From: Phormidesmis sp.
GTDB taxonomy: Bacteria; Cyanobacteriota; Cyanobacteriia; Leptolyngbyales; Leptolyngbyaceae
Length of the DNA: 64,000 bases
Assembly (NCBI GenBank): GCA_965248535.1
Contig: CBDFJR010000005.1
Location: 2,208,001-2,272,000 of the forward strand
Reading direction: 5' to 3'
Shown here: positions 18,069 through 21,475 of the stretch, piece after piece
Position numbering within the stretch: position 1 is the first letter of the stretch
How the letters are laid out: each line of letters opens with the position of its first letter
Program-made: the position numbers and the translations under genes
The notes under the pieces: generated by a model
The model's database searches: none
What the model was told of the DNA's origin: nothing
What the model saw: only the letters and a program-made list of their open reading frames with translations

Positions 18069-19616
18069 TCACGCCTCTAGAACAACTTTCCCAATAGGAC
18101 AGGCCACACAGGTTAAGATATAGCCTGCTTCTCGATCGCTCGGCTCTAGGGCTTCCGGTTCTGCATCATAACGGACTTCGCCTTCTAGCTTACGCTTTCT
18201 ACACGACCCACAAATGCCTTGCCGACAATTACTGCGAATTTTGATGCCCTCCTGCTCTGCTAGCTCTAGGATTGATTCTACATCTTGAAACACAGCCTCT
18301 TTTTTAGATTGAGCAAAATAGACGCTTGCTTGGGCCGAGAGTGATTTGGGTGTTGAACTAGGAGGTGAACTAGCTGCTGAATCGAGAGGCGATCGAGGCG
18401 TTATCTGTTGCTGAATAGAATGACTAGCGACATCTGGAGTCGGCACTTGTGGTTTAGTTTTCTTGGGCGCACCAAAGCTTTCCTGATAGTAGTTTTCCAT
18501 CGGAAACCCCAGCGCTTCCAGCATTGTCTTGACTCCTTTCATAAAGTTATCTGGGCCACAGACATAAACTGTGCGCTCCTGAAAGTCGGGTGCGATCGCC
18601 TTCAACATAAATTCTTCCAATCGCCCTGTCCAGCCATACCAGAGTAGACCAGGCTCCTGACGGGTGGTTGACAGCGCAAGACGGAACTTGGGCAAGCGAG
18701 TTGCCATCAGTTCTAATTCCTGTCGAAAAATGACATCTTGTGGCGTGCGAGTGCAATGGAAAAAGACCACATCACAGTCGATCGCAATATCCGCTATCCA
18801 GCGCGACATCGACATCACAGGAGTAATTCCACTACCCGCCGAGATGAAGAGCAGCTTTTGATCAGGCTTAGGGAGACAAACAAACTTACCCATCGCACCA
18901 TTTAACCGAAGCAGAGTCCCCACTTTGAGCGTGTCATGCAACCAGTTTGAGACGAGTCCGGCTGGTAGATTAGAAGAGTCTGGCGCAGCAGGAACTCGCT
19001 TAACGGTAATCTCTAGGACGTGAGGACGAGCAGGAGAAGATGAAATAGAGTAGGAGCGCGAAACTGGCTCACCCTGAATGTTTAACTCTAGAGTCACAAA
19101 CTGTCCTGGCTTGTATTGAAAGAGAACAGGCGGAATAGCCGTAAATGTAAAGGTTTTGACATCAGGCGTTTCATTCGTAATCCGCACACAGCAAACCGTT
19201 AATTCGCCTTTAGTCCAGTAAGGGAGATCTTGTGGTGAGCGATCGTTGTCTTGGTTCGCTTGTTCTGCAACAGCAGGCTGCACCGAGCCTTGTATAGGGA
19301 CTTCTATCGCTGCTATCAAGAGAACAAAGTCGCCAATTCCAACTAAGTCCTCTGGCTTCAAAGGAAAACTTTGATGGGGCTTCAACGCTTGGTTATTGAG
19401 ACGAGAGCCATTCGCACTCCCCAGATCAGTATAGTGATACTGGTTGTTCTGAAATTTAATACTGCCATGCAATCGACTAGCATCTGGACTAATCAGAATC
19501 ACATCACACTCCTCAGTCCGACCGATAACGCATTTACCCTGGGGATGGGTTTCTGGAGTGAGGGTTTTCTGTTGGAATTCACCCGTTTGGTAGTTAAATA
19601 CTTTGAGTTTCAGCAT
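18069..19616 (-). CDS. FHA domain + FNR-type FAD/NAD(P) oxidoreductase + C-terminal 2Fe-2S ferredoxin
   Basis: FHA GR..SRLH..NGS; RSYSISS, SAGSGITP, YVCGP; CRQGICGSC..C. Confidence 0.9.
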   Translation of the reverse strand: MLKLKVFNYQTGEFQQKTLTPETHPQGKCVIGRTEECDVILISPDASRLHGSIKFQNNQYHYTDLGSANGSRLNNQALKPHQSFPLKPEDLVGIGDFVLLIAAIEVPIQGSVQPAVAEQANQDNDRSPQDLPYWTKGELTVCCVRITNETPDVKTFTFTAIPPVLFQYKPGQFVTLELNIQGEPVSRSYSISSSPARPHVLEITVKRVPAAPDSSNLPAGLVSNWLHDTLKVGTLLRLNGAMGKFVCLPKPDQKLLFISAGSGITPVMSMSRWIADIAIDCDVVFFHCTRTPQDVIFRQELELMATRLPKFRLALSTTRQEPGLLWYGWTGRLEEFMLKAIAPDFQERTVYVCGPDNFMKGVKTMLEALGFPMENYYQESFGAPKKTKPQVPTPDVASHSIQQQITPRSPLDSAASSPPSSTPKSLSAQASVYFAQSKKEAVFQDVESILELAEQEGIKIRSNCRQGICGSCRKRKLEGEVRYDAEPEALEPSDREAGYILTCVACPIGKVVLEA

Positions 19617-19666
19617 GAGTCCTAAAGGCAAACGGAAAGTGTATCCATCTCTAAAGTTGAATTATT

Positions 19667-21475
19667 TTAAGCCTGATCGCTTGGCTCACTTCCTGAAGTT
19701 GGGCTTTTAGGATTGATCGGGCGAAGTATTGTTTGAGCGTTAGTATCTGGAGAAGCAGGAGGATCACTCGGTCGCAACACGGTCATATCTGCTCCAGCAG
19801 GAGGGGGTAATGCTTCTGTGGAGCGTGAGTTCGATCTCAGCACTGTGCGATGAAGATTAGGATCAGGAGGTTGAGAACGCGATCGCAAAAGAGTTACATT
19901 TGCTTCAGGTATTGGGTGCTGTCTAAAGAGATGGGGAAACTCACTTTGGAGGAGGTCGAGAATTGACCAATGGGACTCTTCTGAAATAGCAAATTTTTGC
20001 CTCAATGTATCGAAGGCTTTCAAGCTACTTGAAGGCGTGACACTTCGCTGTTCTAAAGCTTCGCGCAAAACATTACTGTAAATCTGCCAACGATATTCTT
20101 GAGCAAAGCCCGGAATGACTTTGGCTAGGGTGTAGAGTTCATCTGGAGAAAGGTCTTCCAGCGCCCGACCTTCGAGAAACTTAGACAGATCAATGTCTAT
20201 CTTGCTGAGTTGTCGGCGCAGTAAGTTTGTGTCGCGCTCTCGGTTATAGCGTTGGAGACTACTATTCCAAGATTTCACCAGCCATAAAGTACTCAAGATG
20301 ACTGCTAACCCAGCCACAAAGTCTTGCACGAATGAAGGAAAATAGCCGAGCGTTGGACGTACGCCCATAAAGAAAAGACAGTTGAAAGATAGAAACGTAG
20401 CAATTGTAAACGATCGACTCTGCACTGTTTCAGGAGGCAGAGGACGCGCTTGCTGACGGGTATAGTGTTTATAGGCTCGTTCGGCTGAGATCCCGATCAC
20501 ATAGCCAACACTGGTGGATATCACCAGCGTGAAGGGGACAGCAATTAGCTTGGGAATCGCGATCGCATGACCTGCAATAAAGAAGCCTGGACTGAGGAGC
20601 GTCCTGAGTTGATTGGTTTCATTCCACACGCCCGCAGAAAGGAAATGCCAGTTGCCACTATAGAGCCAGAAATATAGATAAAAGCCAACAACGAGTCCAA
20701 AATACCCATAGTAGAGCAATTTACGATCAACTTGTCGAATGCCTTCCCAGTAAGCCCCTTCTGCATCAATATCAATACAGGGAGACTTGCAGGCAACACA
20801 AGCGCTTTTTTCTTGTCCTGTCTGGTCAACCGTGCGACACATTGATTGGGTAATGCTTTTAGGAGGCGCAGTATGGGCCCTACTTCCCAGTAATCCACTC
20901 GGTTCACTATAAATCATCTGCACTGGAGCCATCGGACAGAAGTACTGACACCAGGTTTTGCCATCATAGAAAAATCCGACGGTGATGGCAGCTAGGATCG
21001 TGAATAATAGTAGGCAGCCGAGGAGGAGGCGATCGGAGTTGAACAATAGAAGACGCAGAGTCAGACCGAGGAAGAGCAATCCAAACTGAAAGGTTAGAGT
21101 ATGACGCGCCAGCCAGGAATCCTCGGCGATCGTGGTTTTACGCTGGAGTCTCAAAGCACGCGGAATTTGTGAGATAAAGGAAAGCGGACAGATGCGTCGC
21201 CATGTTTCATGCCCCAGAATGAGTAGTGTCAGGATAATGAGCGGCAGAACCATGCCCCAGAATAGGCGTGCTCCCATTGGGTAAGCAGAGAGGACGTGAC
21301 AGTGGCCTTGAAACTGAAAACAATGGTTGGGAGCAGCAGCGGCAAATAACTGTCCTGTTTCAGTAAGGTGATAGGAAAGAGGATCAGCGAACAAAGATAA
21401 GATGAGAAGCACCCAGCCAATGGCAAAGCCCCATCGAACGAGGTGAATTGTTTTTTCCGGTATCCGGGCAAGCAT
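19667..21475 (-). CDS. Multi-pass membrane iron-sulfur (4Fe-4S-binding) protein
   Basis: Many TMs; WRRICP, WCQYFCP, CVACKSPCIDID; Pro-rich tail. Confidence 0.8.
   Translation of the reverse strand: MLARIPEKTIHLVRWGFAIGWVLLILSLFADPLSYHLTETGQLFAAAAPNHCFQFQGHCHVLSAYPMGARLFWGMVLPLIILTLLILGHETWRRICPLSFISQIPRALRLQRKTTIAEDSWLARHTLTFQFGLLFLGLTLRLLLFNSDRLLLGCLLLFTILAAITVGFFYDGKTWCQYFCPMAPVQMIYSEPSGLLGSRAHTAPPKSITQSMCRTVDQTGQEKSACVACKSPCIDIDAEGAYWEGIRQVDRKLLYYGYFGLVVGFYLYFWLYSGNWHFLSAGVWNETNQLRTLLSPGFFIAGHAIAIPKLIAVPFTLVISTSVGYVIGISAERAYKHYTRQQARPLPPETVQSRSFTIATFLSFNCLFFMGVRPTLGYFPSFVQDFVAGLAVILSTLWLVKSWNSSLQRYNRERDTNLLRRQLSKIDIDLSKFLEGRALEDLSPDELYTLAKVIPGFAQEYRWQIYSNVLREALEQRSVTPSSSLKAFDTLRQKFAISEESHWSILDLLQSEFPHLFRQHPIPEANVTLLRSRSQPPDPNLHRTVLRSNSRSTEALPPPAGADMTVLRPSDPPASPDTNAQTILRPINPKSPTSGSEPSDQA

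Follow-up and report, generated by a model that had tools for sequence, protein, structure and literature searches.

An FHA-bearing reductase and a membrane protein with invariant cysteines form a conserved, putative redox module of cyanobacteria

The window analyzed here, a 64,000-nt stretch of Phormidesmis sp. DNA (contig CBDFJR010000005.1, positions 2,208,001-2,272,000), contains two co-directional open reading frames (ORFs) on the minus strand, which we call MEM and RED, beside a gene cluster for a contractile injection system (CIS). MEM, the more 5' of the two, encodes a polytopic membrane protein, and RED encodes a reductase with an FHA domain at its N-terminus (Table 1). An earlier note on this DNA had described the pair as a two-gene unit divergent from the first CIS gene, and this was borne out: both ORFs lie as described, and the start-to-start gap between MEM and the first CIS gene, a Pvc16_N gene starting at 21734, is 258 bp. 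A scan of positions 17600-21900 for promoters and terminators found no more sites than were found in shuffled sequences.

Table 1. Positions in the window of MEM, RED, their parts and the related genes of the CIS cluster.
Feature	Position	Strand	Description and basis
MEM	19667..21475	-	ORF; 602-aa polytopic membrane protein, eight-helix core with cytoplasmic Cys motifs, helical cytoplasmic domain and disordered tail
MEM Fer4_5-like transmembrane hairpin (residues 86-190)	20906..21220	-	WRRIC96P and WC176xxxC180P; sub-cut-off Pfam match, hhalign
MEM Cys cluster C213-x12-C226-x2-C229-x3-C233	20777..20839	-	cytoplasmic loop, putative Fe-S ligand set; invariant 42/42
MEM disordered cytoplasmic tail (residues 518-602)	19670..19924	-	Pro/Ser-rich; pLDDT <50 at residues 520-598; composition
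Motif 1, T528-L-L-R	19883..19894	-	T528 invariant in 12/12 aligned homologues
Motif 2, T544-V-L-R	19835..19846	-	motif scan
Motif 3, T565-V-L-R	19772..19783	-	motif scan
Motif 4, T582-I-L-R	19721..19732	-	motif scan
RED	18069..19616	-	ORF; 515-aa FHA-FAD/NAD(P)H-2Fe-2S reductase; probable ATG start at 19616
RED FHA domain	19332..19532	-	Pfam, 51.1 bits; G32, R33, S47, R48 and H50 invariant in 26 orthologues
RED FAD_binding_6 and NAD_binding_1 (FNR-type module)	18528..19178	-	Pfam; RxYS and GSGITP motifs invariant
RED C-terminal plant-type 2Fe-2S ferredoxin domain (Fer2)	18096..18311	-	Pfam; C464, C469, C472 and C503 invariant (26 orthologues)
FHA1	33271..35232	+	reductase-type FHA, long acidic linker with TV[LI]Q motifs, methylglyoxal-synthase-like C-terminus
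WD40-repeat membrane protein	35577..37763	+	counterpart of the WD40 gene beside MEM-RED in orthologous loci; weak similarity
FHA2	40127..41113	+	reductase-type FHA then directly DATVMRMPDATIIRP
Ser/Thr kinase	41186..42817	+	Pfam Pkinase; orthologue of the kinase syntenic with MEM-RED elsewhere

All four domains of RED scored above their Pfam cut-offs, the FHA domain (PF00498) against a cut-off of 20.7 bits. In the 520-aa frame that opens with TTG, FHA occupies residues 34-100, FAD_binding_6 residues 152-250, NAD_binding_1 residues 262-368 and Fer2 residues 441-512; the true start is probably the ATG listed in Table 1, because the orthologues of RED all open with MLKLK. The residues through which FHA domains contact phosphothreonine are Gly-Arg, Ser-x-x-His and Asn-Gly. 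In RED the GR and SxxH positions are invariant among the 26 orthologues and N74 is kept in at least 90% of them, and the flavin motif (R187-x-Y189-S190) and the nucleotide motif (G261-S-G-x-T-P266) are also invariant. Three profiles above cut-off together with RxYS, GxGxxP and C-x4-C-x2-C...C motifs characterize FNR-like 2Fe-2S reductases, and RED has them all. Its best NCBIfam match was to the GbcB-type reductase (350.3 against an equivalog cut-off of 500), with PaaE (152.6 against 420.8) and Hcr (195.2 against 383) also below cut-off, and its nearest solved relatives are oxygenase reductases, NqrF and flavohemoglobins. RED thus resembles GbcB, PaaE and Hcr, and the related BenC and NqrF, in the order of its FAD_binding_6, NAD_binding_1 and Fer2 domains and in its retained cofactor motifs, but differs from GbcB, PaaE and Hcr in its N-terminal FHA domain, its sub-cut-off scores and its apparent pairing with a membrane protein rather than a soluble oxygenase.

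The 1766 homologues of MEM that were found have cyanobacterial source names and are annotated only as "hypothetical", "4Fe-4S binding" or "calcium-binding". Matches in the ESM Atlas were to its own family alone, under the name "4Fe-4S binding protein" and from Cyanobacteriota, and a profile search of 1.84 billion representatives gave 1117 family members at E<=0.001, of which 357 also reached E<=1e-30. A MEM match was present in 37/61 genomes searched. The AlphaFold2 model of MEM, made with a 42-sequence alignment (mean predicted local distance difference test (pLDDT) 78.5, predicted template modeling score 0.79), has eight long helices, a helical C-terminal domain and disorder from residue 520 on. 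The loops assigned to the cytoplasm have 1, 6, 7, 1 and 24 Lys plus Arg residues, the other loops 0, 0, 1 and 0, and the predicted topology is N-in/C-in, which would place cysteines C96, C176, C180, C213, C226, C229 and C233, as well as the tail, on the cytoplasmic side. Those seven cysteines are invariant in 42/42 aligned sequences, and C52 and C59, predicted to lie on the non-cytoplasmic side, are kept in at least 90%. The region from C213 to C233 was modeled with low pLDDT, as might be expected of a cofactor site folded without its cofactor.

NapH, CcoG/RdxA and NosR are membrane iron-sulfur proteins of the Fer4_5 (PF12801) type. Like these proteins, MEM has a transmembrane hairpin that ends in a CX3CP motif, predicted to be cytoplasmic, with a further Cys cluster after it; relatives of MEM exceed the Fer4_5 cut-off (25.9 to 34.9 bits), and residues 86-190 of MEM aligned by hhalign with a Fer4_5 protein from its own genome (probability 67%, E 5e-5). 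Unlike them, MEM itself scores below the cut-off, has a single Cys in its first motif, combines eight helices with a helical cytoplasmic domain and appears to have an NAD(P)H reductase of its own. Quinol dehydrogenases of the NapH type have two CX3CP motifs and two CxxCxxCxxxCP ferredoxin motifs, whereas MEM has RRIC96P and one C-x12-C-x2-C-x3-C set, and it had no NCBIfam match of any kind. A wide VIA-align search returned generic small helical bundles on residues 453-530 (Z<=6.4), and because its list barely covered the membrane core, we do not claim a new fold for MEM.

The four T(V/I/L)LR motifs that the earlier note had read at the end of MEM are present in the disordered tail, as TLLR at residue 528, TVLR at 544 and 565, and TILR at 582, and all four fit T[VIL]LR[SP]. 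Motifs of the T..R type number 5 in the tail against 0.89 expected, a count reached by 1/500 shuffles. Of the genome's 7605 stop-to-stop frames with a length of 100 aa or more, only that of MEM had at least three T[VIL][VILYWMFA][RK][PS] motifs within 120 aa; a frame with two copies in the other CIS cluster of the genome (C2:540893-542299) looks folded, and its motifs were taken as chance. The motif is also a feature of the family. Of the 119 other proteins listed as MEM homologues, 112 had the whole core and a tail 15-159 aa long. Among those listed, T[VILM]x[RK] occurred one or more times in the tails of 107/112, for a total of 235 motifs versus 16.4 expected from shuffled tails. Copies ranged from 1 to 6 per protein, and the usual context was [DE]-x-T-[VIL]-x-[RK]-[PS]. 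Co-folding of the RED FHA domain (residues 1-130) with the MEM tail (residues 505-602) gave a score of 0.01, in a model without phosphate that bears neither way on their binding.

Comparison with other genomes indicated that the two genes belong together. In 60 relatives, 22/24 RED matches lie immediately downstream of a MEM match on the same strand, and the two without an adjoining MEM are partial matches on other contigs. A wider scan, with one genome per species, found 538 MEM relatives, of which the best 80 loci were analyzed; 17/80 were dropped owing to a cut tail or less than 2 kb of downstream sequence. The 63 evaluable loci comprised 25 short-tailed MEM genes with RED downstream, 8 short-tailed without it, 4 long forms with RED and 26 long forms without it, so that RED follows MEM in 29/63 loci from other species. 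The tail motif was found in 25/25 of the short-tailed MEM genes with RED versus 3/8 of those without. The genome of Phormidesmis sp. itself has a paralogous pair on another contig (MEM of 564 aa, RED of 518 aa), with a kinase-WD40 gene immediately upstream; the 17 kb examined there contain no CIS gene. By these comparisons, the MEM-RED pair is a widespread, uncharacterized cyanobacterial module.

Natural fusions suggest what the pair may do. Among 53 long MEM family representatives scanned with Pfam (those above ~670 aa among 150 listed), 6 have the MEM core fused to FAD_binding_6, NAD_binding_1 and Fer2 without an FHA domain, two of the six also with PilZ; one such reductase-MEM fusion is assigned to Microcoleus, and the two fusions with short linkers have no T-x-x-R tail. 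Of all the evidence gathered here, the fusions speak most strongly for delivery of electrons by the reductase to the MEM core, and they also suggest that an FHA domain and a phosphorylated tail may stand in for the covalent reductase link. The earlier note's proposal that RED and MEM act together is supported by comparison, in the form of both gene adjacency and fusion. Of the same 53 representatives, 28 have cNMP_binding, 8 have FHA and 4 have HEAT repeats in the C-terminal part, and EF-hand and PAS forms were found among the loci. In these other family members FHA plus cyclic nucleotide (cNMP)-binding, cNMP-binding, EF-hand, PAS or PilZ modules stand where MEM has its tail, and because such differing modules replace the tail, the MEM core resembles an output device that various signals control. 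A separate 843-aa protein of the genome (G000:C5:231477-234008; L003 139-2670) unites cNMP_binding with an AAA+ domain of the sigma-54 type and a membrane domain of the Fer4_5 type, and is another fusion of a signal domain to a Fer4_5 module.

A protein kinase accompanies the pair in part of the family. A kinase (E<1e-30) is encoded in 9/30 RED-bearing loci versus 0/50 others. Six of the closest orthologous loci (L005, L007, L013, L014, L016 and L020) have a WD40 gene and a kinase-WD40 gene upstream of MEM in divergent orientation, and at three others (L008, L010 and L017) the kinase gene follows RED. The best match of the L005 kinase in the Phormidesmis sp. genome is the kinase inside the CIS cluster (window 41183-42271, 340.9 bits, 48% identity), the next kinase domain scoring 189.7 bits. 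The syntenic kinases have a predicted membrane helix between their kinase and WD40 parts; the window kinase, unlike them, has neither the helix nor the WD40 part. The WD40-repeat membrane protein encoded nearby is one of two neighboring proteins of ~730 aa (window 35577-39983) that share an N-terminal, Ig-like region plus a membrane helix; at the C-terminus, one has WD40 repeats and the other more Ig-like domains.

The FHA domains of the CIS cluster are related to that of RED. In a tree of 49 domains (26 from RED, those of FHA1 and FHA2, 13 others of the same genome and 8 fused to MEM), FHA1 and FHA2 nest inside the reductase FHA clade (99/99 for the 26 RED and 2 CIS-locus domains; inner node 97/83), the 13 other own-genome domains and the 8 MEM-fused domains fall outside it, and a smaller tree agrees. 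The shared FHA subfamily proposed in the earlier note is thereby confirmed. FHA2 had no close orthologue among the 60 relatives. The C-terminus of FHA1 (window 34786-35139), beyond a linker of ~400 residues, resembles methylglyoxal synthase, with an NCBIfam score of 75 bits against a cut-off of 84.

From these data we consider it somewhat probable that MEM and RED constitute a membrane redox module conserved in cyanobacteria rather than a CIS component, namely an NAD(P)H-to-membrane electron chain that would be switched by a kinase through a phosphothreonine-FHA tether. In this scheme, for which we infer Fe-S binding by MEM, the direction of electron flow, phosphorylation of the tail, its binding by the FHA domain and the acceptor, RED would draw electrons from NAD(P)H via flavin adenine dinucleotide (FAD) to its C-terminal 2Fe-2S cluster and hand them to one or more Fe-S clusters on the cytoplasmic cysteines of MEM (CX3CP and the set of four Cys). 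The electrons would then pass to an acceptor in or across the membrane, with a quinone, a metal ion and an extracytoplasmic thiol as candidates. A membrane-associated Ser/Thr kinase would phosphorylate the threonines of the [DE]xT[VIL]x[RK][PS] motifs in the MEM tail, and the N-terminal FHA domain of RED would dock on the phosphorylated tail, a switchable tether that would replace the reductase fusion of some relatives. Such docking on the MEM tail is plausible.

Several observations weigh against this reading. The Fer4_5 match of MEM is weak (E=0.0028, 18 bits against a cut-off of 22), the first CX3CP motif has one Cys only (RRIC96P), a Foldseek search of the PDB returned nothing at E<=0.001 and a profile search of PDB sequences nothing under E 0.68. 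FHA domains prefer Asp or Ile/Leu at the +3 position, and the Arg/Lys of the MEM motif is not among these preferences. The co-occurrence of tail motif and RED was counted over related genomes, which are non-independent samples, and with a motif pattern that was widened to include Q after Rivularia-type tails were seen. Moreover, 30/63 evaluable loci (26 long and 4 short) have no adjacent RED, and all EF-hand, PAS and cNMP-only forms of MEM were seen without an adjacent RED, so that the MEM core does not always seem to need a neighboring RED. Finally, because motifs of the same type occur in the tail of the window kinase and in FHA2, the FHA domain of RED could bind there instead.

This last point leads to an alternative that we regard as unlikely, in which the phosphosites of the tail gate MEM, while the RED FHA docks on the autophosphorylated kinase or another phosphoprotein and RED reaches MEM through its ferredoxin domain alone. 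FHA domains are well known to dock on bacterial kinases that have autophosphorylated. The tail of the window kinase has 11 T[VI]x[RKQ] motifs, six of them within 14-residue tandem repeats (..PSQTIFQGxPVQQN.., window 42449-42700) and five upstream of the repeats, from 42209; T[VL][AI]R motifs, mostly TVAR, stand in the linker just before the membrane helix in 4/9 syntenic kinases examined, and two tail-type motifs directly follow the FHA domain of FHA2. What speaks for the tail as the docking site is that its motif tracks an adjacent FHA-bearing RED (25/25 versus 3/8) and is missing from the two short-linker covalent fusions, and that 21/30 pair loci have no kinase within 10 kb. It appears still less probable, and indeed improbable, that MEM serves as a channel or transporter gated by signals, in which the cysteines hold a metal with a structural or sensory role, with RED as a redox sensor or modifier of MEM. 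The interchange of C-terminal cNMP, EF-hand, PAS, PilZ and FHA modules does recall gated channels, no solved redox protein matches the core, and the many evaluable loci without an adjacent RED would fit such a role. Against this, fusion of the core to a full NAD(P)H-FAD-2Fe-2S reductase (6/53) is difficult to account for unless electrons pass to the core, the hairpin with CX3CP is the signature of Fer4_5, and the seven cytoplasmic Cys are invariant.

The position of the pair beside a CIS raises the further question of whether the two are linked. The CIS genes span 21734 to 51487 and are split at 33271-43591 by the genes for FHA1, the WD40 membrane protein, an Ig-like membrane protein, FHA2 and the kinase and by a TetR gene. 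By Pfam there is no Baseplate_J, gp25-like or Tail_P2_I gene in the window, and a 1065-aa ORF in the cluster (45713-48910) matches no family. In this organism the redox or kinase state, read through a shared FHA-kinase network, might control production, assembly or firing of the CIS, much as PpkA-Fha1 act in the type VI secretion system (T6SS); we judge this quite unlikely. Several features of the locus are in its favor: the divergent arrangement with its 258-bp gap, the presence in the CIS cluster of the pair's conserved partner kinase and WD40 protein, and the FHA1 and FHA2 domains, nested in the reductase clade and with the same motif type. In addition, the relative G010 has a gene for a 955-aa long-form MEM (L086 5949-8813, G010:C2) 2.5 kb downstream of the VgrG gene of a CIS orthologous to that of the window. 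This is the only other MEM-CIS adjacency found, and one among 13 CIS-bearing relatives is near chance, by our own estimate of about 0.3 expected.

The comparative data run the other way. Sheath, tube, Pvc16 or VgrG genes were found within 10 kb at 0/80 related MEM loci, 45 of which had at least 8 kb of upstream sequence (20 of those 45 with RED). Among the relatives, 0/22 pairs share a contig with a sheath match, and a sheath match (E<=1e-30) is absent from 9/20 pair-bearing genomes; sheath matches occur in 11/20 genomes with the pair and 13/40 without. Orthologous sheaths (60-75% identity) are present in 13/60 relatives, none of the same genus, and no MEM match was found in the relative whose sheath is closest (75% identity). 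The orthologous CIS clusters of G010 and G050, the two examined, have no FHA gene or full kinase block, and FHA2, as noted, is without a close orthologue. These results do not support a link between pair and CIS as a general rule. The earlier note had staked its idea on the pair not occurring mostly away from CIS or kinase loci; the pair does occur mostly away from CIS genes but not from kinase genes, with a kinase at 9/30 RED-bearing loci. Recurrent co-location, as would be expected of an accessory or regulatory module of the CIS, was thus not seen across the loci compared. A local, lineage-specific link in this genome is possible because the kinase and two reductase-type FHA proteins are encoded inside the CIS cluster: the phospho-signaling partners of the pair are interleaved with the CIS genes and expanded there, which is a lineage-specific arrangement. 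The locus is also a caution against taking the gene neighborhood of a single genome as function, as the adjacency to the CIS is not conserved.

The same genome has a second, more complete CIS cluster (G000:C2:516000-548000; L090, L091) with Pvc16_N, sheath, tubes, a VgrG-like protein, Baseplate_J, Tail_P2_I, AAA and eCIS_core, which lies ~265 kb from the paralogous MEM-RED pair. The boundary of the island in the window could not be defined by synteny, as the flanking genes are only ~52% identical, or were not found, in five same-genus genomes. A short ORF at 16050-16292 has a match to an HNH endonuclease domain, that found in group II intron maturases, and may be an intron remnant. At the other end of the window (60786-63925), an HATPase protein with a cNMP-binding domain precedes a fusion of a response-regulator receiver with a pyridine-nucleotide disulfide oxidoreductase, a second redox-signaling fusion of the window.

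The proposed docking has parallels in known systems. Phosphothreonine docking by FHA domains is exemplified by mycobacterial PknB with GarA or FhaA and by the transporter Rv1747. MEM and RED resemble such bacterial FHA-kinase signaling in the Thr motifs of a disordered tail, the nearby Hanks-type kinase and the canonical contact residues of the FHA domain; they differ in that the FHA domain is part of an electron-transfer enzyme and would bind the tail of that enzyme's own putative redox partner, and in the Arg/Lys at +3. The threonine-phosphorylation pathway of the T6SS consists of PpkA, Fha1/TagH and PppA, that is a kinase, an FHA protein and a PP2C phosphatase. The window is similar in having kinase and FHA genes inside a contractile-injection gene cluster; unlike the T6SS pathway, TagH scores below its cut-off, no PP2C phosphatase domain was found among the window ORFs scanned, and kinase and pair are conserved together away from any CIS. 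By analogy only, the module also recalls the NOX5/RBOH NADPH oxidases, in which a membrane redox domain receives electrons from a dehydrogenase of the FNR type, with control by EF-hands or phosphorylation across the family; the membrane domain of MEM is, in contrast, non-homologous, with Cys and putative Fe-S rather than bis-His heme, and RED is a separate protein. A full-text literature search, with subscription journals outside it, found no study of the MEM family or of an FHA-fused reductase in cyanobacteria. Synechocystis slr0593, a "cAMP binding membrane protein" that may belong to the family and on which no conclusion here rests, is named in one paper solely in a table of expression data. 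The words "FHA" and "kinase" do not occur in the main text of the Anabaena tCIS paper (PMC8894136).

A broader view, which we hold as doubtful, is that the MEM family represents an undescribed cyanobacterial class of signal-gated membrane electron-transfer devices (NAD(P)H to FAD to 2Fe-2S to membrane Fe-S to acceptor) that would be switched by a C-terminal module responding to cyclic nucleotide, Ca2+ or cyclic di-GMP, by a PAS domain or by a phosphothreonine tether. In this genome, duplication of the phospho-branch would have given rise to two FHA proteins within the CIS cluster, and one kinase would co-ordinate redox output and the injection system.

Overall, the observation of the MEM-RED pair itself is sound and strengthened by comparison, any CIS link is local at most, and the docked electron chain is a well-motivated proposal. 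Because a short conserved motif and natural fusion proteins are at hand to serve as controls, the docking idea is directly testable. If the idea is true, cyanobacteria would possess an unrecognized, signal-controlled path by which electrons from NAD(P)H enter or cross a membrane, and the pair would clearly exemplify an electron-transfer chain that Ser/Thr phosphorylation puts together on demand.

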